Source: Chitinophagaceae bacterium (GTDB taxonomy: Bacteria; Bacteroidota; Bacteroidia; Chitinophagales; Chitinophagaceae). From it: a stretch of 64,000 bases of DNA. The notes beneath the pieces are model-generated. The model was not told the DNA's origin and made no database searches. It saw only the letters and a program-made list of their open reading frames with translations. Positions 12,922 through 63,498 of the stretch are shown piece after piece; the first letter of the stretch is position 1, and each line of letters opens with the position of its first letter. Where the stretch lies: the NCBI GenBank assembly GCA_003168265.1, contig PMSV01000007.1, positions 8,429-72,428 of the forward strand. Direction: 5' to 3'. Made by a program: the position numbers and the translations under genes.

Positions 12922-12985
12922 CCTACCCTGCAAATAGAACTGTTCTCGGGAACCGATCCACAACTACCTCAATCTTAAACAAAAT

Positions 12986-13330
12986 GCTACCAGCTCGTAA
13001 GCCGGATTCTGTTTCTAAACCATCATTTATCTGGTCCGGTCATTACTGACGGGATCTGGCTGCCTACCCGCCAACTCAAGCGGGCCGCTTTCAAACGTTG
13101 GCTTATTTGGCATTACAGCATGCAAGGTTTACCCGCAAAACCTGTTACCAGGAATTGCCGTGAGCTCTTACCTCACGTTTTCACCCTCATTCCTTCCGAA
13201 GAAAGAACAGTTATTTTCTGTGGCACTATCTGTTGATGTGAACATCACCCGGCGCTTAACCGGTGCATTGCCCTGTGCTGTCCGGACTTTCCTTTCCTGC
13301 TAAAACAGGAACGATGGTTCGGCTGGTAGC
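12986..13330 (-). ncRNA. rnpB: RNase P RNA (bacterial type A)
   Basis: Minus strand has GAAAGGAAAGTCCGGACAGCACAGGG and the 3' ACAGAATCCGGCTTAC; terminal GCTACCAGC/GCTGGTAGC arms form P1. Confidence 0.96.
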
Positions 13331-16459: not shown

Positions 16460-17470
16460 TTAAGCGATGGCACGGTTTTCCCTGGCAACACGAAGATTGC
16501 CGTTGATGCGAATTTTTTTGCCCGTCAGGACTTCATTCATGAAAAAGAAATAGGTCTTTTTGGAAATAAACTGCCTGATTTTCCTTTTGGCTATGACACG
16601 GCTGCGATGTTTGGATTTGATCAGAGATATCGCTTTAAAAGGTACAGGTAAAGAGAGTATATAATCTCCGCCTGCGATTCGTATGGATTCGAAAGTTCTC
16701 CAGAATTCATCATAATTTTTTTGGAAACCATTTTCACCGATGGTGGCATTTCCAACCCGGTTACAGAGACTGACCCCAACCAAGGTTCGGATTCCCAGGG
16801 AAATGGCCATGCCTTCCAGAGCAGAAATCAGCAGCACCGGGAGGGCATTATCACTATAGGCCTTCGAAGCATCTGAAATCTTATCCAGGCTTTCGCGGAC
16901 ACCCTGTATTCTCGTGACATAGATGACCTGGTCATCAACAATGCCAAAAAAGACCCCGTTGCAAAAGGTAAATGAAATTGTATAAAGCGGAGATTCATTG
17001 ACATGGAAAATCAAAGAAAGACACCCTTCTTCTTCGAAAGGATAGGCATCAGCTAATTTGATCTCATATCTATCGGAACCTCTTGTTTCAGACCAGATAA
17101 CAAGACCATTTCTGAATATCTGTCTCAAAATATGATAAGGGAAATTCTTCTTGAAAAATTCATAGTGATTGATAAGAATTTTCTGTCTCTTTTCTGTATC
17201 AAGCGAAGTCGAAAGATATTTATAGAGATAGAGATAATAGGTCCTTCTTGCGATAAACCCGAGATCGCCAAAAGACTTCAGAATCTTATTCAATCGGTGA
17301 TGGCCCGGTACATATAAGATTATTCTCAAAGCCCTTAATACGTAGGAGAAAAGCAGGCTTAGTGATTTCTCACGCCGTCTGTTAATGACAAACCGGACAT
17401 GTTGTATCAAAGAGTACAAAGAGTACAAAGCAAAGCGTTTTACAAGAATTAGGAAATTGGACTTCAACAT
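16460..17470 (-). CDS. VirK/YbjX (DUF535) family protein
   Basis: YLSTSL...R..ILINHY, EEEGCLSL, YTISFTF, RIQG and YDEFW motifs match DUF535. Confidence 0.8.
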   Translation of the reverse strand: MLKSNFLILVKRFALYSLYSLIQHVRFVINRRREKSLSLLFSYVLRALRIILYVPGHHRLNKILKSFGDLGFIARRTYYLYLYKYLSTSLDTEKRQKILINHYEFFKKNFPYHILRQIFRNGLVIWSETRGSDRYEIKLADAYPFEEEGCLSLIFHVNESPLYTISFTFCNGVFFGIVDDQVIYVTRIQGVRESLDKISDASKAYSDNALPVLLISALEGMAISLGIRTLVGVSLCNRVGNATIGENGFQKNYDEFWRTFESIRIAGGDYILSLPVPFKAISLIKSKHRSRVIAKRKIRQFISKKTYFFFMNEVLTGKKIRINGNLRVARENRAIA

Positions 17471-17551: not shown

Positions 17552-17622
17552 TGCCCGATAGTATAACGGTAGTACGTCAGATTCTGGATCTGAATGTCTT
17601 GGTTCGAGCCCAGGTCGGGTAA
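17552..17622 (+). tRNA. tRNA-Gln(CTG)
   Basis: Acceptor TGCCCGA/TCGGGTA, anticodon stem TCAGA/TCTGA with loop TTCTGGA, T-loop GGTTCGAGCC. Upstream TATATTTG promoter at 17536-17543. Confidence 0.96.
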
Positions 17623-52061: not shown

Positions 52062-53399
52062 TCAGACTTTCTCCCTCTTTTTCATAAAGCGCTTAGCCAA
52101 AAAATAAATCAGCAGAAAGCTCAGAAAAACAATGGTCCCGATCAAAGCATATTTTGGAAAGGAAATACCGATAGTGACCCAGACAAATACATAGGTTATC
52201 ACAAAAATTAATGGAATCCATGGATAATATTTCATGGTATAAATGCCCGTATTATCCAGGTGCTTCGTCCTTTTCCGGAATATAAAAATGGTCGCTGCAG
52301 AAGTGGCCATTCCAATCGAATCCAGAAAAATCGAAAAACTAAGGATCTTTTCAAAAGTATCGGCAAAAAACAGCACCACGACACAGATCGCTGCAAAAAC
52401 AGTCAGGCTCACTGTCAAAACATCCCTTTTTTGATCTTTTTTCTTAAAAGAGACGGGCAGCATTCCGTCTTCGCTCATAGCAAACATGACACGAGGATTA
52501 CTCAGCAGCATCACATTTACATAGGCCAGCACGGCAACGAATAATAACACCGATGCGATGTTCTTCCCCGTAATTCCGAACATCTTCTCCGCCACGATAG
52601 AAGCGATGCCTTTGGCCCCTTTCAGGTCCTGAAAGCCAATAAGAAGGTAATAGGAAAGGCTTACGGACAGATAGAGCAGGATGATCACCATAATTCCCCA
52701 AAAAACTCCCCTCGGAATATTCTTTCTTGGATTCTCGATCTCTTCTCCGAAATTGATCGTTTGCTGATAACCCCCATAAGTAAAGGAAGCAGCTTTCATT
52801 GCAATTCCGAAAGAAAGCAGCAATTGTATATTTGCCGAACTACCCCGGAAAAAGAAATGATTGCCCGGATGATACAAATGCGGCATAAAGATGGCGGCGA
52901 CGATCATCGCAATCATCCCCAGCTTGATCAACATCAGAAAATTCAAGACCCTTGTACTTATCCGAAGGCCCAGCATATTGATCCCATAAAAGCCCACAAT
53001 AGCTCCTATCGAAAGCATGGATTTAACGAGGGAGGAAGGCTCAGACTTAAAAATTACCTGTGAAATATATTCGCTTCCGATCAGGGCCACTCCGGCGAGG
53101 GCGGAAGCATTGGAGATCAGTATTACGCAATTGATCGCAAATGCGATCGAAGGATGATAGGCATAAGAAAATATTCTGTAAAATCCACCGGTAACTGGGT
53201 AGCGGCTGCCGATCTCGGCGAAGGTCAGACCACCGCAAAAAGCAATGATGCCCCCTGCAATCCATGCCCCGAAATAGACCGCTGGGGAAACAGCGGCCGA
53301 AGCCGCATCTGCGGGGGTCCGGAAAATACCGAGTCCTATCACCAGCCCGATCACGATCATCGTCAGGTCGAAAAGATTCAGTTTTGGTCCTTTAGTCAA
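52062..53399 (-). CDS. APC family amino-acid permease
   Basis: IG.GIF.TP, FAEIGSRYPVTGG.Y, YGG and EEIENP.KNIPR motifs; about 12 TM segments. Confidence 0.92.
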   Translation of the reverse strand: MTKGPKLNLFDLTMIVIGLVIGLGIFRTPADAASAAVSPAVYFGAWIAGGIIAFCGGLTFAEIGSRYPVTGGFYRIFSYAYHPSIAFAINCVILISNASALAGVALIGSEYISQVIFKSEPSSLVKSMLSIGAIVGFYGINMLGLRISTRVLNFLMLIKLGMIAMIVAAIFMPHLYHPGNHFFFRGSSANIQLLLSFGIAMKAASFTYGGYQQTINFGEEIENPRKNIPRGVFWGIMVIILLYLSVSLSYYLLIGFQDLKGAKGIASIVAEKMFGITGKNIASVLLFVAVLAYVNVMLLSNPRVMFAMSEDGMLPVSFKKKDQKRDVLTVSLTVFAAICVVVLFFADTFEKILSFSIFLDSIGMATSAATIFIFRKRTKHLDNTGIYTMKYYPWIPLIFVITYVFVWVTIGISFPKYALIGTIVFLSFLLIYFLAKRFMKKREKV

Positions 53400-53470: not shown

Positions 53471-55570
53471 GTGAAACCTACGCAACGCATGAAGCAGCAC
53501 TTTTTGGTCCTATTATTAAGTATTGGATCCCTTAGGCTATTTTCCCAGGCGCCTCCTGCCGCAGACTCTTCCGATTCCAAAACCTTGAAAGAAATCGTGA
53601 TCAAAGCTTATGAACAAAACAGGACCCTTTCTGAGGTAGCCGCACCCGTTGTAATTACGGGCCCATCCCAACTCAACCGCTTCAGCAATATGAGCATCCT
53701 GCCTGCCCTTAATATCAATCCGGGTGTCAGCATGGAAGAACGATCCCCGGGAAGTTACCGGCTCAATATCCGAGGCAGCTCACTCAGGTCACCCTTCGGC
53801 GTCCGTGATGTAAAAATCTATCTGGATGATATTCCGCTTACTGATCCCAGTGGTAATACTTATCTGAATCAAATCAGTTTCTATAATGTCCAATCAGCAG
53901 AAATCATCAAGGGACCAGCGGGAAGCCTATATGGGGCCAGCCTTGGGGGAGCCATGCTGATCCATACCCAACCCAGGCAATTTGACCAGGGCATAGACCT
54001 CGATTATTCATTGGGCAGTTACGTGACTAACAACCTTCACGCTGACATTCGCTTCGGATCAGATGACAGGCAGAATGATTTGGGGTTTACCCATCAATCC
54101 AGCAATGGGTATCGTCAACAAACCCAAATGCATCGCGACATCGGAACCTGGGCCACCACCCTCAAGTCTTCGGACAAACAGGAACTAAAAGCCTATTTTT
54201 CCTATGGAAGTCTCTATTACCAAACCCCTGGCGGTCTCACTAAGGCCCAATACGATTCCAATGCTACTCAAGCCAGGCCAGGGTCGATAGCTGCTCAGGC
54301 TGCCATCTTCCAGAAAAATTTTCTAATTGGTTTTACCAATATCTATCATATAACAGATAAATGGCAAAATTCCACCACGGTATACGGAACCTATACTGAC
54401 TTCATCAATCCGGGTCTAAGGGTCTATGAATATAGGAAGGAGCCGCATTTCGGAGGACGCTCGGAATTCCAGTATAAGGACCAATTCGGTGAACTCCAAT
54501 TTCAATTCAATGCAGGAGTCGAATACCAGAAAGGTTTTTTCAATACCAGGGACTATGGAAACAAGCAGGGAGTGGCTGACTCCCTCGAAACCGACAACAA
54601 TATCAACCTCTGGCAATACATGATCTTTTCCCAGGTCGATCTCAGGTATAAGGGCTGGGTACTGACCCTGGGCGGAAGCCTCAATAAATCCTCAGTTGAG
54701 TTCATCAACCTCTACACCCTGCCAGCTTCTCCTTCCACGATACAAACCCGGACCTTCGAAAACAAGCTTCCTCCCCATATTGGTCTTTTAAGAAAACTCA
54801 CTGAAACACTATCCGCCTATATCAATATCGCTCGCGGTTTCTCCACGCCGACCACCGCCGAAATGTTAAGTTCCGATGGAATGTTCGGCACCAATCTCCA
54901 GCCCGAAGATGGCATGGACTATGAATTAGGTTTCAGAGGCTCCCTGCTGCATGACAGGTTATATTTCGACTTCAGTGGCTTTCTTTCCCACCTGCACAAT
55001 ACCATCGTGCAACGCATTGACACAAACGGAGTCTACTATTACGTCAATGCAGGATCCACAAAACAAAACGGGATTGAAGTCTATATCTCCTACCAGCTAG
55101 TCGAACAGTCCATCGGACCCATCAATAGCGCCAAGCTCTTTTTGAGTTATGCCTATCATGATTTTCATTATAGCAGTTTCGAACAGCTTAATGCCGATTA
55201 TTCCGGAAACAAAATGCCGGGAGTAGCCCCTCATACGGTCGTCGCTGGGCTTGACCTTTATTTTCTTCAGAATTTTTATTTCAACGCAACTTACAATTAT
55301 AGCGCTTCCATCGATCTTAATGATGCCAATACAGTTATCGCCTCCCCATTTCAATTATTCGGAGCCCGTATAGGATACAGGAAACCCCTCTCTAAAAAAT
55401 TTCGAATGGAATTTTTTGCCGGTGCCGACAATCTCTTCAATGTCAAATACAGCCTTGGAAATGATTTCAATGCCGCAGCCGGCCGATATTATAATGCGGC
55501 CCCCGGAAGGAATTTATATGCGGGGATTATTCTTAAAGACCTGTTCATAAAATCAACGCCTCATTCTTAA
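53471..55570 (+). CDS. TonB-dependent receptor, substrate unknown
   Basis: Plug domain (NIRGS...DDIPLT...IKGPAGSLYG) and C-terminal barrel (YYNAAPGRNLYAG). Start may be the ATG at 53489. Confidence 0.92.
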   Translation: MKPTQRMKQHFLVLLLSIGSLRLFSQAPPAADSSDSKTLKEIVIKAYEQNRTLSEVAAPVVITGPSQLNRFSNMSILPALNINPGVSMEERSPGSYRLNIRGSSLRSPFGVRDVKIYLDDIPLTDPSGNTYLNQISFYNVQSAEIIKGPAGSLYGASLGGAMLIHTQPRQFDQGIDLDYSLGSYVTNNLHADIRFGSDDRQNDLGFTHQSSNGYRQQTQMHRDIGTWATTLKSSDKQELKAYFSYGSLYYQTPGGLTKAQYDSNATQARPGSIAAQAAIFQKNFLIGFTNIYHITDKWQNSTTVYGTYTDFINPGLRVYEYRKEPHFGGRSEFQYKDQFGELQFQFNAGVEYQKGFFNTRDYGNKQGVADSLETDNNINLWQYMIFSQVDLRYKGWVLTLGGSLNKSSVEFINLYTLPASPSTIQTRTFENKLPPHIGLLRKLTETLSAYINIARGFSTPTTAEMLSSDGMFGTNLQPEDGMDYELGFRGSLLHDRLYFDFSGFLSHLHNTIVQRIDTNGVYYYVNAGSTKQNGIEVYISYQLVEQSIGPINSAKLFLSYAYHDFHYSSFEQLNADYSGNKMPGVAPHTVVAGLDLYFLQNFYFNATYNYSASIDLNDANTVIASPFQLFGARIGYRKPLSKKFRMEFFAGADNLFNVKYSLGNDFNAAAGRYYNAAPGRNLYAGIILKDLFIKSTPHS

Positions 55571-55620
55571 GGAACTGTGTAAAACTTCTTTTGGAGAAAA
55601 ATAATTCTCTGCTATTTTTG

Positions 55621-55818
55621 TTATGGTTTTGGTTCACCGGCCTCAGGCCGGTGATTAAAAGGGAAGTCCGGTGAAATTCCGGCGCTATCCCCGTAGCTGT
55701 GAGCTCTTTAGTGGTTGGAGAAAAATTCAACCATACTGTCCGGTCTCTACACCACTGTCCCCAAGAAGGGATGGGAAGGTACCGGCCAGCGAGCAAGCCA
55801 GAAGACCTGCCAGATCCT
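55621..55818 (+). promoter_or_regulatory. Cobalamin (B12) riboswitch
   Basis: AAAAGGGAAGTCCGGTGAAATTCCGGCGCTATCCCCGTAGCTGTG...CCACTG...GGGAAGG...GCCAGAAGACCTGCC. TATTTTTG promoter at 55613-55620; lies upstream of btuB. Confidence 0.95.
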
Positions 55819-55954
55819 TTCTCAACATTCATCAGCTTTCGGGTGAAAAGCATGGAATGTAAAATGCCAAAGGCAATTTATATTTCACCAGTTTTGTTTT
55901 TCCGAAGGTTCATTCATTAACCGCTTTCAAAAAGAAAGCATCAAAAAATTAAGA

Positions 55955-57877
55955 ATGAGCAAGTTTTTTTTTCTGGCTGCAGTCCTAATCCTTTCGGCCT
56001 CCCTTTCAAAAGCCCAAACCGACACAGTTAAAGAAACTAAAAAACTAGATGAAGTCGTCATCACGGCTTCAAAAGTGAATCTCAAGCAATCCCAGACCGG
56101 TAAAGTAATCATTGTCATCTCCAAAGAAGAAATCGAAAAAAGCGAGGCCAAAAGCCTGGGACAATTACTTAATGAACAAGCGGGAGTCATCATCGGCGGA
56201 GCCCTCAACGATGCAGGCACCAATCAGAGTATTTATATACGCGGAGCTACATCCGGTCGCGTCCTCGTATTGATTGATGGCATACCGGTTTACGATCCTT
56301 CCATCACGGACAATTCATTTGATCTCAATCTCATGCCGATCGACGGGATCGAACGCATCGAGATATGTAAAGGCGCCCAATCCACTCTCTATGGTTCAGA
56401 TGCCATCGCAGGCGTGATCAATATTATCACGACCAGGACCGATCCCCAAAAACCACTCAATCTCAAAGCAAACCTTGCGGGAGGAAGTTATGGAACGATC
56501 CGTGGCGGAGCTCAATTGTATGGAAAAATTGCCGACGACCTCGTCTACAATGTCCGCTATAACAAATATAAGACGGACGGCTTTCCAATGGCCTATGACA
56601 GTACGGGAAAGGGGCATTTCAGCAATGACGGCTACAATGGTGATGCACTTGCTGCCAGCCTGACCTGGAAGGCGCTAAGCCATCTGCAGATCAAAGGATT
56701 TGCAGAGTATAACAGATACATCACCAATCTTCCCGCAGGCGCCTTTACAGATGCCCAGGATTATACCAATACAAGCAAGAACATCCTGCTCGGAGGCAGC
56801 GCCACCTATCAACTTCGGGGGACCAGTCTCCATGCCAATTACCAATATGCCACTTATGATCGTCAACTGCTTGAAGACAGCGTCGATGGACAATCCTATT
56901 ATACCGACCATTATTTTGGAAAGACCCAGTTCCTTGAATTGTTTGCAAGCAGCAAGCTGGGAAATGGATTCACCTGGCTCAATGGAGCCGATTACCGCTT
57001 CGCATCCATGAATGAACAAAGCAATTATGGAAATTTCAATGACACTTCCCTCAAACAGGGATCAGTCTATAGTTCCGTATTCTATTCGCAAAAATCGGGC
57101 TTCAATGCCGAACTGGGAGGGAGATTCAATGCTAACTCCCGCTACGGGACCAACTTCACCTATACATTCAATCCCTCCTTTGTCTTCAATAATACCTGGA
57201 AATTCTATGCAAGCATATCATCCGGATTCAAAGCTCCGACCCTCTATGAACTCTATTCTTCCTATGGAGACAAAAACCTCCAGCCTGAAACTGCCTTGAA
57301 CTATGAAGCAGGTCTTCAGTATTCTGATAAAAGTTTCAGCACCAGGGCCACTTTCTTCTACAGGAAAATCCATGATGGCCTTGACTTCAATTACGTTACC
57401 TATCTCTATTACAATTACACAGAACAAAATGCCGATGGCATTGAATGGGAAAACAAATGGCAAATCACCAAAACCTTCAGCATCACTGCCAACTATACCT
57501 TTACGCATATCAATGAGCAAACCCAGAGTCATATCACCTATGACGATACGACCTATGCTTATGCGCTGCGGATACCCACACATGCCATCAATGCAAGCCT
57601 CGGTTGGAAACCGGTCAAAAACCTCTTCATCAGCATCAGCGCCCATTATGAAAGCAAACGTTACGACCTGGGAGGATACGATGCCAGTTTCAATCCCTTG
57701 CCAGATGTGACATTAAAAAGCTTTGTCATCTTCAATGCCTATGGCGAATACTATTTGAAATCCTGGTTGAAATTGTTCGCCGATGCAAAGAACCTGTTCA
57801 ATACCCAGTTCTTCACGATCTATGGCTATAATTCCATTCCCTTCATGGTCAATGCAGGCGCTTCCATCAGCCTTTAA
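55955..57877 (+). CDS. btuB: TonB-dependent cobalamin receptor (BtuB-like)
   Basis: TonB box LDEVVITA, plug (IRGA...VLVLIDG, IERIEI.KG.QSTLYGSDA), barrel; downstream of a B12 riboswitch. Confidence 0.88.
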   Translation: MSKFFFLAAVLILSASLSKAQTDTVKETKKLDEVVITASKVNLKQSQTGKVIIVISKEEIEKSEAKSLGQLLNEQAGVIIGGALNDAGTNQSIYIRGATSGRVLVLIDGIPVYDPSITDNSFDLNLMPIDGIERIEICKGAQSTLYGSDAIAGVINIITTRTDPQKPLNLKANLAGGSYGTIRGGAQLYGKIADDLVYNVRYNKYKTDGFPMAYDSTGKGHFSNDGYNGDALAASLTWKALSHLQIKGFAEYNRYITNLPAGAFTDAQDYTNTSKNILLGGSATYQLRGTSLHANYQYATYDRQLLEDSVDGQSYYTDHYFGKTQFLELFASSKLGNGFTWLNGADYRFASMNEQSNYGNFNDTSLKQGSVYSSVFYSQKSGFNAELGGRFNANSRYGTNFTYTFNPSFVFNNTWKFYASISSGFKAPTLYELYSSYGDKNLQPETALNYEAGLQYSDKSFSTRATFFYRKIHDGLDFNYVTYLYYNYTEQNADGIEWENKWQITKTFSITANYTFTHINEQTQSHITYDDTTYAYALRIPTHAINASLGWKPVKNLFISISAHYESKRYDLGGYDASFNPLPDVTLKSFVIFNAYGEYYLKSWLKLFADAKNLFNTQFFTIYGYNSIPFMVNAGASISL

Positions 57878-57887
57878 AATCAAACAA

Positions 57888-58469
57888 ATGATTATACATC
57901 CATCTCATCCTAGAACCGGAGTCCTGATCGGGATCAGTCTTCTAGTTGCCGCTTTCAGGATCATTTGCAATTTCAGTCCTTCACTCAACGACCTGGCAAA
58001 CTTTTCACCGCTGGCCGCCATCCCTCTTTTTGCGGCGGCCTATTTCAAGGGCTTCTGGAAACCCTTCGCATTCACGATGGCTGTGATGTTTATCAGTGAT
58101 CAGGTCCTATTCACTACCGTCTATAAAAATTATGGCAATGGTTTTCTCTATCATGGTTGGTTTTGGGTCTATGGGTCCTTCGGACTTATCTGCATACTGG
58201 GAAAATTGATTATCCGGGAAGACAAATGGGGGGGCATATTAATCACCATGGTTCTTTCAGTACTGATCCACTGGATCGTATCGGATATTGGAGTCTGGAA
58301 TCATAGTCCTATCTATTCCCAGCACATGGCCGGCTATCTCAGTTGTCTTGCGGCCGCCATACCATTCGAAATACGCTTGCTATTAGCCACCCTGATCTAT
58401 GGCGGCCTATTATTCGGATCATTCCAATGGCTGAAAATGAAATTTCCAATACTTCAATCAAAATCATGA
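57888..58469 (+). CDS. DUF6580-like membrane protein, putative transporter
   Basis: About 5-6 TM segments; NFSPLAAIPLFAAAYF, SD.G.W and Y.AAIPF motifs. ATG at 57888. Confidence 0.7.
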   Translation: MIIHPSHPRTGVLIGISLLVAAFRIICNFSPSLNDLANFSPLAAIPLFAAAYFKGFWKPFAFTMAVMFISDQVLFTTVYKNYGNGFLYHGWFWVYGSFGLICILGKLIIREDKWGGILITMVLSVLIHWIVSDIGVWNHSPIYSQHMAGYLSCLAAAIPFEIRLLLATLIYGGLLFGSFQWLKMKFPILQSKS

Positions 58470-59401
58470 AAGCCTGTTCCTTTCTCCCTGCGGCCACGAG
58501 GATGATCTACGATATGGGTCTCCAGGACCTGCTCCATGGAGTAACATTTGAATGCCCGGCACCCGAGGAGAAGGCCAGGGTCGTTCGCTGCCTTCTGGAA
58601 GGAAAATCCTATTCCAGTCAGGAAATAGATAAGATCTTCTCCCATTCCAAGGCAAGCGGCAAGAGCCTTTACTATGTCGATGATGAACTCTTACAAAGGA
58701 TCGCTCCCGATATCGTTTTTACCCAGGATATCTGTGAGGTCTGCCAGATAGATACAGAGGCGACCGCAAAGGCCGTCTATAAACTGAAAAATCCTCCCCT
58801 CCTCATCTCCCTGAATCCCCAAAACCTTGACGATGTTTACCAATCAGCCCTGACCATTGCCCGGGTCCTTAACCATGAAGATGCAGCCTATGGCTATCTT
58901 TCCGGCTTGCAAAAGCGGACTCAACGAATCCTGGACAGACTTCGGGAAAACCACATGCCCTTGAAAAGGGCATCCCTTTTCGAATGGATCGACCCCATTT
59001 ACAATTGCGGGCATTGGATCCCCTTCCAGATCGGTCAGGCGGGAGCCGTAGATCTGCTCGGCAATCCTGGTGGTGACTCCATCGTCATCGATTTTGAAAA
59101 GGTTAGCAAATACAATCCCCAGATCCTTATCATAGCGCCCTGCGGATTTGAGACCCGGCGAACCCTCGAAGAGATGGAAATCCTTAGGCAAAAGGCGGGC
59201 TGGGAGGAACTCCAGGCCGTTCAGGACAAAAAAGTCTATATAATGGATTATGAACTGTTTACCCAACCCAGCCCTTCCACTCTGGTAGATGGCATTGAAC
59301 TGCTCTCGGCCCTCATTCATCCCCAGATCTTTGAAATTCCCATGCACCTGAAACACAAATTCCAGGACTTTTTCAAAATCAAGGCCCATGTGCAAACATG
59401 A
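58466..59401 (+). CDS. BtuF-like cobalamin-binding fold protein without signal peptide
   Basis: SFLPAATRMIY.MG...GVTFEC, PD.V.TQD.C.VC, EWIDP...GHWIP and PQILIIAPCGF motifs. ATGA overlap with the previous gene. Confidence 0.8.
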   Translation: MKACSFLPAATRMIYDMGLQDLLHGVTFECPAPEEKARVVRCLLEGKSYSSQEIDKIFSHSKASGKSLYYVDDELLQRIAPDIVFTQDICEVCQIDTEATAKAVYKLKNPPLLISLNPQNLDDVYQSALTIARVLNHEDAAYGYLSGLQKRTQRILDRLRENHMPLKRASLFEWIDPIYNCGHWIPFQIGQAGAVDLLGNPGGDSIVIDFEKVSKYNPQILIIAPCGFETRRTLEEMEILRQKAGWEELQAVQDKKVYIMDYELFTQPSPSTLVDGIELLSALIHPQIFEIPMHLKHKFQDFFKIKAHVQT

Positions 59402-59606
59402 TGAAATGGCTTGCCCCCGATGCGAAATACCCTTTGAATGCCGGATTGGCGATATTTCCAATTGTCAATGCACGGGCATTGCCTTTAGTATAGAAGAAAA
59501 AGCATTTATCGAAGACCGTTACCAGGGATGTCTATGCCGTGAATGTCTTCTGGAACTCAAGCAGCGCCACATTCTTTTCATCGAAAAATACTTTTACCAT
59601 GGATGA
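59388..59606 (+). CDS. Cysteine-rich CWC family protein
   Basis: CPRC..PFEC.....C.C......CLC..CL pattern; overlaps both neighbours. Confidence 0.85.
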   Translation: MCKHDEMACPRCEIPFECRIGDISNCQCTGIAFSIEEKAFIEDRYQGCLCRECLLELKQRHILFIEKYFYHG

Positions 59607-60336
59607 ACAACACAGGCCTCGGGCTTACATGAATTGGAGTGGAGGAAAAGATTCAGCGCTCTGCCTATTCAAGGCGATCCAAAATGAACAGTTTGAAATC
59701 ACCCATCTTCTCACCTCGATCAACTCTGTTCACAATCGTATCTCCATGCATGGTGTGCGCCGGGAATTGCTCTACCAACAAGTGCATGAAATTGGTCTTC
59801 CTCTACTCACTATCGAAGTCCCTGAGCAGCCCAATATGCAGGAATATGAACAGGCAATGTTTCAAAAAGTCGAAGCACTCAAAGATATCGGCTGCACCCA
59901 CGCCATCTTCGGTGATATTTTCCTCGAAGACCTCAGGCAATACCGGGAAAATAAATTAAAGGAGGCCGGCATTGTATGCAATTTTCCACTTTGGAAACAA
60001 TCTACACGTGAACTTGTTTATGAGTTTCTGCGCCTCGGTTTTAAGACCATAATCGTCTGCGTCAATGAACAATTCCTTGGCTCATCCTTTTGCGGCCGGA
60101 TCATCGATGAAAATTTCCTTAGTGACCTGCCGGATAATGTTGATCCTTGCGGAGAAAACGGGGAATTCCACAGCTTTGTCTATCAAGCTCCCCTATTCAA
60201 AAACCCCATCTCAATCAATAAAGGCGAAATCGTTTACAGAAAATATGCCGCTCCTAAAAACGCCGACGACGACCAGCATTCCTGTGCGGGAACAGCAGAC
60301 TACGGGTTTTATTTCTGTGATATCCTGCCAGTGTGA
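59599..60336 (+). CDS. Dph6/DUF71-like PP-loop ATP pyrophosphatase (diphthine-ammonia-ligase-like)
   Basis: WSGGKDS PP-loop, GDIFLEDLR.YRE and DPCGENGEFHSFV motifs. ATG at 59599. Confidence 0.88.
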   Translation: MDEQHRPRAYMNWSGGKDSALCLFKAIQNEQFEITHLLTSINSVHNRISMHGVRRELLYQQVHEIGLPLLTIEVPEQPNMQEYEQAMFQKVEALKDIGCTHAIFGDIFLEDLRQYRENKLKEAGIVCNFPLWKQSTRELVYEFLRLGFKTIIVCVNEQFLGSSFCGRIIDENFLSDLPDNVDPCGENGEFHSFVYQAPLFKNPISINKGEIVYRKYAAPKNADDDQHSCAGTADYGFYFCDILPV

Positions 60337-60384
60337 AAGGTAGTCCTCCCGACCCTGCTTCTTATATTTGCATAAACCAACGGT

Positions 60385-60963
60385 ATGCATATATCCCTGA
60401 ATGAGCTACTCACCGTCACCTTCACGCTATTTGCGGTGATAGATATCATCGGATCTGTCCCCCTGCTCGTATCCCTCAAAACCAGTTTAGGCAGTATTAA
60501 TGCCCGGAAAGCCACGTTAATATCCGGTGGCCTTATGATCGTTTTCCTATTCTTCGGCCAGCCATTTCTCAACATACTCGGTGTAGACGTACATTCCTTT
60601 GCAGTCGGCGGTTCCATCCTTATTTTTATCCTTGGCCTCGAAATGGTGCTCGGCATGGAGTTCTTCAAAAGTGATAAAAACGCCCGCGCCAGCACAGCCG
60701 TTCCCATCGCTTTTCCGCTGATAGCCGGCTCCGGAACACTCACAACGATAATGTCCTTAAAGGCTAATTATGAAGAACTTACCGTCCTCATCGCCATCCT
60801 GATCAACTTAGTGATAATTTACATAGTTTTGCGCTCCCTGAACCTGATCGAGACCCTCATCGGTCCGGCCGGAATGATCGCCGTCAGAAAGTTTTTCGGT
60901 GTGATTTTACTCGCCATCGCGGTTAAAATCTTCAGCGCAAATGTCGGCGGCCTGATCAAGTAG
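60385..60963 (+). CDS. MarC family membrane protein
   Basis: LFAVIDIIGSVP, PIAFPLIAGSGT and KFFGVILLAIAV motifs. Confidence 0.92.
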   Translation: MHISLNELLTVTFTLFAVIDIIGSVPLLVSLKTSLGSINARKATLISGGLMIVFLFFGQPFLNILGVDVHSFAVGGSILIFILGLEMVLGMEFFKSDKNARASTAVPIAFPLIAGSGTLTTIMSLKANYEELTVLIAILINLVIIYIVLRSLNLIETLIGPAGMIAVRKFFGVILLAIAVKIFSANVGGLIK

Positions 60964-60981
60964 CGAGAAAGGCATTTTATT

Positions 60982-61056
60982 GGTCCCGTAGTTCAATGGA
61001 TAGAATAGAAGTTTCCTAAACTTTTGATACAGGTTCGATTCCTGTCGGGACTACCA
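60982..61056 (+). tRNA. tRNA-Arg(CCT)
   Basis: Acceptor GGTCCCG/CGGGACT, anticodon stem GAAGT/ACTTT with loop TTCCTAA, T-loop GGTTCGATTCC, encoded CCA. Confidence 0.96.
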
Positions 61057-62620
61057 AACCGGAATTAGAGTCTAAAAAAAGGGGAGATGAAAATTCTTCT
61101 TGCTGGTAAAGCCTTGATTGTTCTGAGATTGACGAAAAAACTGAGTTCATTTTACAGGTTCGATATGTGTTATTTTGAAAATCATAAGACACACCTTCAG
61201 GAAAAATTAAGTTTTGAAGGCCCTGCTTGATCTCAAAACTGCCAGAAGTCCACATCACATTGAGTTTAGAGCTTAATTTCACAGAGTAATGGACAAAATT
61301 ATCAAGGTTCGATAATTTTAATTCGGTCTTTTTTAGTTCGTTATTAATATGACTTATTTCCTCATTAAACTTTGCTGTGATACGCTTATAAACTTCATCA
61401 TCCTCAATTTTGCCTAATGCATACCTCTCCTGAACTTTAAAAAGGTTATCCTGGGCTTCATGTAGTTTAGTCCTAAGCAATATTTTCGTAACCTCACTAT
61501 CCTTATTCAATGCCTTAAAAGTCAACGAAAGTTGCAACTTTAATGGTTCAATATATTTTTCAGGTATAGTATAGTTAGACAGATATTCATTGAAAGAGGA
61601 GTGCATTATATCAGCGTTTCTATTATGTCTACACCCTCTTTTATTGCACTTGTAGTAGATGGCCTTTTTGTTTACAACAGAATAACCAACGCAAGTAGTT
61701 CCGCAATAGTCACATTTCACGAACCTTTTTAAAGGGAATATGTCATCATTATTCTTTTTCACAAACGTTTTTGCCTGGTCAAAACCAATATTATTTGCTT
61801 TTAGAAATACTTCTTCACTAATAAGCGGTTCATGCCTTCCTTTCACAATCTCATTCCCAAGTAACCTATTTTTAATATACCCGCAATAAAAAGGATTCCG
61901 GAATATATCGAATAACCTTTTCTCATTTATAAAATGACCGAACGATTTACACCGCATCGAGATTTCATAATTTGTCAATCCCTGCTCAACTTTTAATAAA
62001 AAGGCTTTGCGGATAATTTCACCTACATTATTAATAACTAATTTTTGCTCACCCAATTCTTTAGCGTGGACATATCCGATTGGAGCCTTACCCATCCAAT
62101 ACCCATTTAGCAATTTCTCCTTCGACCCAGCCACACATTTTTCTTTACGCAATTCATTATCATACTGTCCGAATAAAAATTGTATGTTTTGCTGAAATGT
62201 TCCGCTGGAAGTTTTTGTATCAGTTGGCTGTGTACATGCAATAATATGCACTCCCATCTTTCTTAATTCATCTGCAACCGAAATAGCAGCCCCTCCCGTT
62301 CGAGAAAATCTATCAATACTATAAACGATAATATAATTGATTTTCTCAGTTGAGCTTCTTACAAATGACAGCATTCTTTGAAACTCTTTCCTGGCATCAC
62401 TTTTAGCGCTTTCATATTTGCGCCCAAACTCCCCTAATACGTTATAGCCATTTTTGTCTGCATATTGTTTGCAATATTTTAATTGTATTTCCAAGCTATC
62501 ATTGTTTTCAGCTTGTTCCTTTGTGGAAACACGCGTATAAATAACAACGTTTTTCTTGTTATTATCATGCGAATCGGCGTTGGCTTTATAAAGGCTTTTT
62601 ATTAATTCGATATTACTCAT
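61016..62620 (-). CDS. Large serine recombinase (resolvase + recombinase + Zn-ribbon + coiled coil)
   Basis: YTRVST catalytic Ser, ESAK, DRFSR, APIGY, CDYC...YYKC...C. ATG at 62620. The 3' end overlaps tRNA-Arg on the opposite strand. Confidence 0.93.
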   Translation of the reverse strand: MSNIELIKSLYKANADSHDNNKKNVVIYTRVSTKEQAENNDSLEIQLKYCKQYADKNGYNVLGEFGRKYESAKSDARKEFQRMLSFVRSSTEKINYIIVYSIDRFSRTGGAAISVADELRKMGVHIIACTQPTDTKTSSGTFQQNIQFLFGQYDNELRKEKCVAGSKEKLLNGYWMGKAPIGYVHAKELGEQKLVINNVGEIIRKAFLLKVEQGLTNYEISMRCKSFGHFINEKRLFDIFRNPFYCGYIKNRLLGNEIVKGRHEPLISEEVFLKANNIGFDQAKTFVKKNNDDIFPLKRFVKCDYCGTTCVGYSVVNKKAIYYKCNKRGCRHNRNADIMHSSFNEYLSNYTIPEKYIEPLKLQLSLTFKALNKDSEVTKILLRTKLHEAQDNLFKVQERYALGKIEDDEVYKRITAKFNEEISHINNELKKTELKLSNLDNFVHYSVKLSSKLNVMWTSGSFEIKQGLQNLIFPEGVSYDFQNNTYRTCKMNSVFSSISEQSRLYQQEEFSSPLFLDSNSGLVVPTGIEPVSKV

Positions 62621-62775
62621 AAATACAAGTTGCTCTGAAATTAAAAAATTGATACGCAAGGATTGAAAATTGATACAGGACATTGATCACCGAAACACCT
62701 TCTTCATCGGAGATATTTTGAAAACCTTCAAATTGCTTTAATTGTGATAAGGTTATTATTGACATAATTGTAGGA

Positions 62776-63498
62776 TTAAAGGCGAACACTTATTGTTTTA
62801 TAATCAACTGAAAATATTGTTTCGATAAATTTACATATGGCGTCTTCATTTGGCTCAATAATTATAGGTTCATCTTCTGATTCAATGATAATGCTTGTAT
62901 TCCGACTATTTTGTAAAAATTTTAATGCTGTTGTTTCTTTGGGCTTTAGCATTTTCGTATTTATCACATAACTCAAAAATTCTCCATTCGCTAAAAATTC
63001 TTTCATCAGAAGTTGAAGATCAATTGTTACGAATTTTGAATACTTACTTAGTTTCATTTTTCTCTCGAAATCTTCTGGCCTTGCCACACTAAACTGACCG
63101 TCTTTCGTTATTACAAAGAATGAGTGTTTACGATTAAATAACGGATATAGAACAGCTTTTTCAAACTCCAACATTGCATAAAATTTGTCTTTTTTCGAGA
63201 ATAACCTATTAGCTGCGATTTGAATGATGCCATTACTAAAATTCAATTCTTTCAATTCTTTAATCAATAATATCCAAATAAACTCGTAAAAATTAAATTT
63301 ATCCCAACCCGGTCTCTTCTTTTTTTGGCCCGAATCCTCGGATGAAACCAAGCCTTCAGAAATCCAATATCTTAATTGCCTCACAGATTTTTCTTGATCC
63401 TGACTTGTAACCTTCTTTATGTCTTTTATTCCAAAATATTTACTCTTCAATTCCAAATGAACTCTCTCTTCTTCAACTGTCAGCTTTCCTCCTTTCAT
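62776..63498 (-). CDS. MerR-like winged-HTH DNA-binding protein
   Basis: RQLRYWISEGLV...GWDKFNFYEFIWILLIKELKELNFS fits the MerR-type HTH pattern. Confidence 0.7.
   Translation of the reverse strand: MKGGKLTVEEERVHLELKSKYFGIKDIKKVTSQDQEKSVRQLRYWISEGLVSSEDSGQKKKRPGWDKFNFYEFIWILLIKELKELNFSNGIIQIAANRLFSKKDKFYAMLEFEKAVLYPLFNRKHSFFVITKDGQFSVARPEDFERKMKLSKYSKFVTIDLQLLMKEFLANGEFLSYVINTKMLKPKETTALKFLQNSRNTSIIIESEDEPIIIEPNEDAICKFIETIFSVDYKTISVRL

Follow-up and report, generated by a model that had tools for sequence, protein, structure and literature searches.

A candidate corrinoid uptake and salvage operon under cobalamin-riboswitch control in soil Bacteroidota, apparently working without BtuFCD

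Introduction

By what route does a corrinoid cross the inner membrane when the operon that encodes its outer-membrane receptor holds no gene for an ATP-binding cassette (ABC) importer? BtuCDF is missing from about half of the Gram-negative bacteria that depend on B12, most of which have no known transporter for the inner membrane (PMC6072759). The question is raised by a 64,000-nucleotide stretch of a Chitinophagaceae genome (GenBank assembly GCA_003168265.1, contig PMSV01000007.1, positions 8,429 to 72,428; hereafter the window), which belongs to a 480-kb contig from peat metagenomes and has its closest named relatives among Chitinophagaceae such as Lacibacter, Panacibacter and Sediminibacterium. 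Here a cobalamin riboswitch is followed by five genes, encoding a BtuB-like receptor, a membrane protein of the DUF6580 family, a protein with a periplasmic-binding-protein fold that we call BtuFc, a small cysteine-rich protein of the Cys_rich_CWC family (CWC) and a DUF71 (Dph6-like) ATP pyrophosphatase. An earlier reading made from the letters alone (the sequence-only reading) had seen in them a five-gene module that imports a corrinoid through BtuB and a single-component inner-membrane carrier, holds it on a cytoplasmic binding protein and then modifies it using ATP.

Our answer, which we hold with somewhat better than even confidence, is that the locus is a cobalamin-riboswitch-controlled operon for corrinoid uptake and salvage, of a type widespread in soil Bacteroidota, and that it apparently works without the BtuFCD ABC importer. 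Our confidence in each single protein role is lower than in this overall picture.

Results

The aptamer (55613-55828, forward strand) matched the full Rfam covariance model RF00174 (positions 1-189) at 104.9 bits against a gathering score of 31.5 (E = 3e-25). It is followed by a leader (55829-55954, forward strand) that is presumed, from folding prediction, to be the expression platform: within 55800-55960 a stable hairpin (~55835-55909) and another stem that extends to the start codon were predicted (z = -3.4 against shuffled sequences). Since no canonical U-tract terminator was found, the regulatory mode is one that we infer. The first gene past the riboswitch (55955-57877) encodes a BtuB-like TonB-dependent outer-membrane receptor of 640 amino acids with a Plug domain (PF07715, E = 1e-26) and a barrel domain (PF00593, TonB_dep_Rec_b-barrel, E = 4e-29); its best NCBIfam model was TIGR01779 (TonB-B12) at 255.8 bits, which is under the equivalog cut-off of 599.7. 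After a 10-nucleotide gap comes the gene for the DUF6580 membrane protein (193 amino acids; 57888-58469; PF20221, E = 8e-42), and from there on the genes overlap. The start of the BtuFc gene (311 amino acids, class III substrate-binding-protein fold; 58466-59401; PF01497, Peripla_BP_2, E = 1e-13) overlaps the DUF6580 stop as ATGA, the CWC gene (72 amino acids, eight conserved cysteines; 59388-59606; PF14375, E = 5e-12, 46.4 bits against a cut-off of 24) overlaps that of BtuFc by 14 nucleotides, and the DUF71 gene (Diphthami_syn_2/DUF71 PP-loop ATP pyrophosphatase, 245 amino acids; 59599-60336; PF01902, E = 4.5e-35) overlaps the CWC gene by 8 nucleotides (ATGGATGA). All five genes lie on the forward strand. 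The sequence-only reading had named this same succession of riboswitch, btuB, DUF6580, BtuF-like, CWC and Dph6-like genes, with overlapping start and stop codons among the last four and with neither BtuC/BtuD nor BtuG/BtuH, and each of these points held; btuC/btuD, btuG/btuH and cob genes were not found anywhere in the 64-kb window.

The locus is transcribed in situ. Exact-match contigs across it were present in peat and permafrost metatranscriptomes, and short contigs bridge both the btuB/DUF6580 junction (57854-58054) and the CWC/DUF71 junction (59473-59623), in agreement with the operon transcription assumed earlier. In three peat metatranscriptomes (X24, X25 and X26) depth was ~9-11 over the riboswitch leader and 2-5 over the coding part. 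Contigs confined to the aptamer cover 55637-55833, are ~3-5x deeper than the coding part and stop at 55816-55833, before the predicted leader hairpin; this deep RNA may be a stable aptamer fragment or a product of premature termination. The pattern as a whole fits an expressed, attenuated operon. A scan of 55400-61200 for sigma-70 promoters and intrinsic terminators returned counts at the level of the shuffled controls, Bacteroidota promoters lying outside the model of the scan.

We then compared the locus with its relatives. A scan for relatives of DUF6580, with one genome per species, confirmed 558 stretches, and the best 80 loci, the window and two lookup loci made up a set of 83 loci anchored on DUF6580. 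Since the scan loci are the 80 closest of the 558 confirmed matches, the counts below are biased towards Bacteroidota. Open reading frames (ORFs) in the 83 loci were called by a simple longest-ORF heuristic and clustered all against all, and riboswitches were found with an nhmmer profile seeded from Rfam-confirmed riboswitches; downstream counts refer to the 70 loci with at least 4 kb of downstream sequence and upstream counts to the 71 loci in which the upstream sequence reaches 2.6 kb or more. A cobalamin riboswitch lay upstream in 65/71 loci and a TonB-dependent receptor gene lay upstream of DUF6580 in 63/71. The receptor adjoined the riboswitch in most of the 65 riboswitch-bearing loci, and in 6 loci the riboswitch stood directly before DUF6580 with no btuB between them. 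Downstream, BtuFc was present in 46/70 loci, DUF71 in 47/70 and both together in 39/70. The order receptor, DUF6580, BtuFc, (CWC) and, further on, DUF71 recurs in Chitinophagales, in Pedobacter and other Sphingobacteriales, in Balneolaceae and in a few metagenome-assembled genomes (MAGs) of Flavobacteriia and Cytophagia. A gene order shared by dozens of genomes, from several Bacteroidota orders and from Balneolaceae, can hardly be accidental, and the expected conservation of the cluster behind B12 riboswitches was borne out.

The idea of a fixed five-gene module did not survive this comparison. CWC was found in only 22/70 loci, BtuFc and DUF71 are sometimes absent, and further genes are interleaved: many Chitinophagales operons read BtuB-DUF6580-BtuFc-CWC-CobU-DUF71-CobT-CobS-CobC, CobU, CobT, CobS and CobC being present in 17, 16, 16 and 14 of the 70 loci, respectively, and in one Flavobacteriia MAG a nitroreductase-family BluB-like gene is inserted between DUF71 and CobT. 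The statement that the cluster has no cobalamin synthesis gene is therefore right for the window locus and wrong for its relatives. Since CobU, CobT, CobS and CobC, and once a BluB-like gene, lie within the same operon of relatives, we describe it as a corrinoid salvage operon rather than a sealed module; the window carries a shortened form of a modular operon for corrinoid salvage and the nucleotide loop.

Two side observations concern the make-up of related loci. In Pedobacter a SIR2-family (CobB-like) gene (e.g. L006:11651-12340) lies between BtuFc and DUF71, where Chitinophagales carry CWC; it was seen in Pedobacter only (29/70 loci, and 29 of the 38 Sphingobacteriales loci). Salmonella CobB was reportedly first found as a CobT substitute in B12 synthesis, and the Pedobacter gene may serve a lower-ligand activation step. 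In a Deminuibacter MAG (L035) more cobalamin riboswitch matches (13062-13143 and 16979-17144) lie just downstream of the DUF6580 operon, preceding a class I ribonucleotide reductase (nrdAB-like) and the B12-independent methionine synthase metE, which is the classic B12-repressed isozyme pattern.

What stands in the place of BtuCD? Neither a BtuC permease nor a BtuD-like ATPase was found in any of the 83 loci, the sole ORF with an ABC-ATPase motif being 556 amino acids long and not BtuD-like; the absence of btuCD thus covers the 64-kb window and the 83 loci. A second type of Pedobacter locus bears on the place of DUF6580. It reads riboswitch-BtuB-BtuG-BtuH-BtuG-DUF6580, its BtuG and BtuH lipoproteins having been assigned by PDB sequence matches to 3dsm/8blw and 7biz, and DUF6580 here takes the position that BtuFCD holds in Bacteroides loci. 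An AlphaFold2 (AF2) model of the window DUF6580, built with 25 homologues, showed six long helices (pLDDT 84, pTM 0.80). Its best Foldseek match in the PDB was the B12 carrier BtuM (8ovv; probability 0.99, TM-score 0.53/0.58, root-mean-square deviation 3.7 Å), and the next matches were the S-components ThiT and 4huq_S. We take PDB entry 6FFV to be BtuM of Thiobacillus denitrificans. The modeled fold thus speaks for the single-component carrier fold suggested by the sequence-only reading, and we propose DUF6580 as a candidate inner-membrane corrinoid carrier.

Residues R24, D71, Y88, Y95, H128, W129 and D133 are invariant in the DUF6580 family and C153 is near-invariant. Membership in the BtuM family itself was considered and rejected, there being no sequence or profile match; the likeness at the level of the fold remains. 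The DUF6580 family is large (4,396 clusters at 50% identity in a profile search at E <= 1e-3), some relatives bear the NCBI label 'DUF6580 family putative transport protein', and a full-text literature search returned no paper mentioning DUF6580. Distant DUF6580 genes (L090-L094) adjoin unrelated genes (Rce1-like, VitK2_biosynth/MoeA and aminotransferase); like S-components, DUF6580 proteins at large may differ in what they carry.

Many small vitamins and precursors are handled by proteins with an S-component fold, and DUF6580 might likewise import a lower-ligand precursor (alpha-ribazole or 5,6-dimethylbenzimidazole), as does CblT, the energy-coupling factor (ECF) S-component of Firmicutes that transports alpha-ribazole, while the corrinoid enters by BtuFCD or another system encoded elsewhere. 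Such a cargo would suit the several loci (e.g. L012) in which DUF6580 is directly followed by CobU, CobT and CobS, and btuCD could sit elsewhere in the genome, beyond the 64-kb window. We nevertheless consider it quite unlikely. In the second type of Pedobacter locus DUF6580 is the sole inner-membrane protein behind riboswitch-BtuB-BtuG-BtuH, all others being handlers of whole corrinoids; the window locus has no CobT or CobS to use a lower ligand; the best structural match is a B12 carrier and not a small-ligand S-component; and DUF6580 is translationally coupled to a binding-protein fold of corrinoid size.

That coupled protein, BtuFc, carries no signal peptide. Its N-terminus, MKACSFLPAATRMIYDMGL, is the first strand of the mature fold, and all 54 orthologues start at residue 1 with an SFLPAxT-MI motif (MK-x-x-SFLPAAT-x-MIYDMGL in most). 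No signal peptide was found in any of the 54, nor a hydrophobic N-terminal segment, lipobox or twin-arginine motif, and in 42 of them there is no earlier in-frame start codon. That every orthologue begins directly with the mature domain argues for a cytoplasmic BtuFc, as the sequence-only reading had supposed, and the missing signal peptide is a conserved trait of the family. BtuFc is 53-67% identical across orders, above the identity of DUF6580, and its start abuts the DUF6580 stop (~4 nucleotides either way) in several lineages. Five cysteines are invariant: Cys30, Cys90 and Cys93 (a CxxC pair), Cys181 and Cys226. The AF2 model (pLDDT 73) has a class III binding-protein fold, and a Foldseek search gave 158 PDB matches at E <= 1e-3, of which the 50 best-ranked were all class III substrate-binding proteins. 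The genomic context suggests that BtuFc binds a corrinoid, and we propose it as a cytoplasmic corrinoid acceptor or chaperone. A true BtuF orthologue it is not; this assignment was rejected on sequence, on location and on the missing BtuCD partner.

Could BtuFc instead be exported without a classical signal peptide, as a periplasmic binding protein feeding DUF6580 or an unlinked BtuCD? Class III folds are almost always extracytoplasmic, and every structural neighbor of BtuFc is periplasmic or a lipoprotein. The start of all 54 orthologues at the first beta-strand, the missing upstream in-frame start in most of them and the lack of export signals make export very improbable, and the five invariant cysteines with their CxxC pair fit a reducing compartment better.

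The CWC protein has a pattern of eight cysteines conserved in 14 orthologues (CPRC...FEC...CxC...CLCxxC), in which the name-giving CWC motif reads CQC in the window protein. The N-terminus MCKH(E/D), common to 13/14 aligned orthologues (MGKHE in the other), supports the start at 59388. CWC is mostly restricted to Chitinophagales. A hidden Markov model scan of the loci found CWC-DUF5522 fusions directly after DUF6580 in 6 loci, including Saprospirales and Flavobacteriia (L038:6041-6442, L047:8817-9182, L062:8205-8633, L070:11508-11852, L074:1919-2302 and L001:11119-11535), DUF5522 being a second cysteine-rich module with the motif RG-x-CCG-x-x-C-x-x-CPY. In L038, L062 and L074 the fusion occurs without BtuFc and without DUF71, and CWC is therefore tied more to the membrane protein than to the enzyme. 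Two small ORFs considered as divergent CWC genes (c408 in L059 and c373 in L050) lacked the cysteine pattern and were set aside as spurious. A homologue search with the 72-amino-acid protein gave only 10 close matches and no informative fusions, and a search of the literature on PF20221, PF14375 and DUF5522 gave only one incidental listing of a CWC gene. In the corrinoid (cbi) cluster of Sulfurospirillum, a CWC gene lies between cbiA and sirC and is co-induced with the cluster (PMC7755780). We propose that CWC is a metal-binding accessory protein.

The closest solved relative of the DUF71 protein is PF0828/3rjz (E = 2e-21). It carries the PP-loop SGGKDS and the motif ENGEFH, and among its orthologues SGGKDS is kept in 55/55 and ENGE[FY]H in 52/55, which is consistent with the ATP use that had been predicted for the Dph6-like enzyme. 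The motif ENGEF/YH, in place of the Dph6 motif EGGE/DxE, defines the DUF71-B12 subgroup (de Crecy-Lagard et al. 2012, PMC3541065), of which 75/102 members adjoin B12 transport genes; the association with B12 genes is seen in Archaea and other Bacteria, the subgroup anti-correlates with bacterial CbiZ, and a CbiZ-like amidohydrolase reaction was proposed for it (PMC3541065). By these motifs the window protein is an ordinary member of the subgroup, and in relatives its gene lies between CobU and CobT. Because the ATP site is retained in all DUF71 orthologues, we think ligase-type chemistry more likely than CbiZ-like hydrolysis: a corrinoid carboxylate would be adenylated and an amide then formed. 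A search of the literature on COG2102/PF01902 with cobamides found no experimental follow-up of DUF71-B12.

The anti-correlation with bacterial CbiZ (PMC3541065) also agrees with a different division of labor, in which BtuFc, CWC and DUF71 form one cytoplasmic remodeling enzyme that replaces CbiZ and cleaves or rebuilds the nucleotide loop of cobamides that the cell does not want. BtuFc would then be its substrate-holding subunit, with no part in transport, and the cysteine-rich parts would bind a metal or Fe-S center. The frequent co-occurrence of BtuFc and DUF71, the gene overlaps in the window, the invariant BtuFc cysteines, the eight cysteines of CWC and the position of DUF71 among CobU, CobT, CobS and the BluB-like gene in relatives are all in keeping with such an enzyme. 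It is in our judgment unlikely. There are 7 loci with BtuFc but no DUF71 and 8 with the reverse, the CWC-DUF5522 fusion follows DUF6580 with neither partner in the three loci named above, BtuFc always adjoins DUF6580 with its start abutting the DUF6580 stop in several lineages, and the retained PP-loop argues for ATP-driven ligation over simple hydrolysis.

Past the operon, a gene for a MarC/NAAT-family membrane protein (60385-60963, forward strand; PF01914, E = 6e-29) starts 48 nucleotides after the end of DUF71. MarC follows the last B12 gene (DUF71 or CobC) in 14/24 Chitinophagales loci and is absent in other orders; its membership in the operon is weakly supported, and its place here probably reflects synteny alone. 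The same could be asked of the operon genes: that riboswitch-btuB, perhaps with DUF6580, is the functional B12 unit and the downstream genes are mere lineage-specific synteny. BtuFc and CWC are indeed tied to B12 by context rather than experiment, and MarC demonstrates that pure synteny occurs at this locus. We give this explanation the least credence of all, since the gene order, with its overlapping codons, is kept across orders and into Balneolaceae, CobU, CobT, CobS, CobC and the BluB-like gene are inserted between these genes and not beside them, and independent links to B12 exist for DUF71-B12 in Archaea and other Bacteria and for CWC in Sulfurospirillum.

Beyond MarC lie a tRNA-Arg(CCT) gene (60982-61056, forward strand) and a Resolvase-family serine recombinase ORF (61016-62683, reverse strand) that ends within the 3' part of the tRNA-Arg gene, followed by genes without Pfam matches, including 62776-63498. 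Contigs of the same locus from other samples (L084-L086) end at or just before tRNA-Arg, and this looks like a mobile element integrated at tRNA-Arg in some members of the population and not in others. Just upstream of the riboswitch, and outside its control, lies a pair of genes for a second TonB-dependent receptor, whose best NCBIfam match is PqqU-like, and a divergent amino-acid permease (53471-55570 and 52062-53399); several Chitinophagaceae (L001, L003, L031, L054 and L073) show both genes in synteny with the B12 operon. Elsewhere the window contains housekeeping genes (Gld motility, HemN/HemD, DnaG, RecG and others), a bacterial class A RNase P RNA (12982-13330, reverse strand; 271.5 bits) and a second tRNA (17552-17622).

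Discussion

Together, these observations suggest how a corrinoid might be taken up and processed through this operon, the functions of all proteins being ones that we infer. When adenosylcobalamin is scarce, the riboswitch would permit expression of the operon. The BtuB-like receptor would move cobamides or cobinamide into the periplasm, and DUF6580, with a predicted six-helix S-component fold like that of BtuM, would carry the corrinoid across the inner membrane without an ATPase. On the cytoplasmic side BtuFc would accept the corrinoid from the carrier, giving uptake its direction, and hand the ligand on. CWC may be a Zn or Fe-S accessory that possibly aids upper-ligand removal or cobalt reduction. 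With ATP, DUF71-B12 would adenylate a carboxylate on a corrinoid side chain and turn it into an amide, by re-amidation or attachment of a linker; a CbiZ-like cleavage has been published as the alternative. In relatives the product would enter CobU, CobT, CobS and CobC, and once BluB, to give the preferred cobamide, whereas in the window genome these enzymes would be encoded elsewhere or lost. The most specific part of this scheme, that DUF6580 and BtuFc form an importer whose direction comes from a binding protein on the trans side and not from ATP, while CWC and DUF71-B12 process the bound corrinoid, is a tentative proposal to which we give clearly less than even chances.

A number of findings weigh against this picture. 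The likeness between DUF6580 and BtuM is at the level of the fold only, with weak Foldseek E-values (0.28 and above) and a TM-score of ~0.55; phmmer and a 25-sequence profile of DUF6580 found nothing at E <= 10 among all PDB chains, BtuM included, and the ECF/S-component Pfam families gave no match to DUF6580 at E <= 10. No cysteine is conserved in the loop that joins helices 57-77 and 91-108, so that the cobalt-ligating loop-3 cysteine of BtuM apparently has no counterpart there; the near-invariant Cys153 lies in the 140-157 loop. Of the four distant DUF6580 members that we looked up, three are solitary, with neither B12 genes nor a riboswitch of any Rfam family nearby; the link to B12 is therefore shown only for the DUF6580 subfamily of the window. 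The folds nearest to BtuFc are the heme binders ShuT and PhuT, with Vibrio cholerae BtuF at rank 16, and no solved BtuF was among its PDB sequence matches at E <= 0.01, with single sequence or profile. BtuFc is thus no closer to BtuF than to heme and siderophore binders, in a model of moderate quality (pLDDT 73), and the earlier label 'BtuF-like' stands for the fold and falls for the sequence. Since some loci do without BtuFc, some without CWC and some without DUF71, none of the three is obligatory for DUF6580. Finally, the contigs from the metatranscriptomes are sparse and short, and some may derive from DNA.

If the proposal is true, DUF6580 and BtuFc would supply what has been missing for many soil Bacteroidota, a route for B12 across the inner membrane that does not need BtuCD. 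The B12-linked DUF6580 subfamily, found in Chitinophagales, Pedobacter, Balneolaceae and others, sits where the missing transporter is expected, and the groups that carry it abound in soil and peat, habitats whose communities are shaped by corrinoid exchange. A conserved signal-less binding-protein fold coupled to a membrane carrier is unusual and suggests an ATP-free drive for uptake. Biochemical work on the DUF71-B12 enzyme and on the CWC and DUF5522 proteins also gains a defined context from the locus, and cultured hosts exist in Pedobacter, Niastella, Chitinophaga and Lacibacter.

How much of this is new? The riboswitch, the BtuB-first layout, the association of DUF71 with B12 and the single-protein B12 carrier are already known, and the claim of the sequence-only reading that no characterised pathway has such a composition overlooked the description of DUF71-B12 in 2012 (PMC3541065) and of BtuM in 2018 (PMC6072759). 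Our literature search found nothing on a link of CWC or DUF5522 to corrinoid loci, and a DUF6580 carrier paired with a binding-protein fold in the cytoplasm appears to be undescribed in the literature searched.

Compared with E. coli BtuB-BtuFCD and the BtuB-BtuG-BtuH-BtuFCD loci of gut Bacteroides (PMC6143338), the window operon likewise has a riboswitch, a BtuB-like first gene and a protein of the Peripla_BP_2 fold. It differs in that the 83 loci hold no BtuC or BtuD and in that its binding-protein homologue has no signal peptide; BtuG- and BtuH-like lipoproteins are carried by Pedobacter relatives and not by the window. The window DUF71 shares its domain, PP-loop, ENGEF/YH motif and clustering with B12 genes with the published DUF71-B12 subgroup (PMC3541065), and there is no difference at the level of the family. 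The genes of cobinamide salvage and nucleotide-loop operons (CobU-CobT-CobS-CobC and BluB) are interleaved with those of the present operon in Lacibacter, Niastella, Balneolaceae and the Flavobacteriia MAG, whereas the window operon lacks them and keeps the uptake genes and DUF71. With the eukaryotic cytoplasmic B12 chaperones MMACHC and MMADHC, for which a Co-S handover is described (PMC12501144), BtuFc may share, by conceptual analogy, the receipt of incoming B12 in the cytoplasm, its processing or escort and possibly a cysteine chemistry; folds and sequences are unrelated.

The nearest precedent is BtuM of Thiobacillus denitrificans (PDB 8OVV), a solitary S-component-type B12 transporter from a family defined by jackhmmer, which established that B12 uptake can be independent of BtuCD and free of an ATPase (PMC6072759). 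DUF6580 is likewise small and, as modeled, six-helical, linked to btuB, and found in the place expected of BtuCD with no ATPase nearby. In contrast to BtuM, which occurs in Proteobacteria, it is found in Bacteroidota and Balneolaceae, belongs to another Pfam family without sequence or profile similarity, apparently does not conserve the cobalt-ligating cysteine of loop 3 (Cys80 of BtuM), and is paired with a partner of cytoplasmic binding-protein fold, which BtuM does not have. DUF6580 and BtuFc may resemble BtuM and BtuF in a possible mode of action rather than as members of their families.

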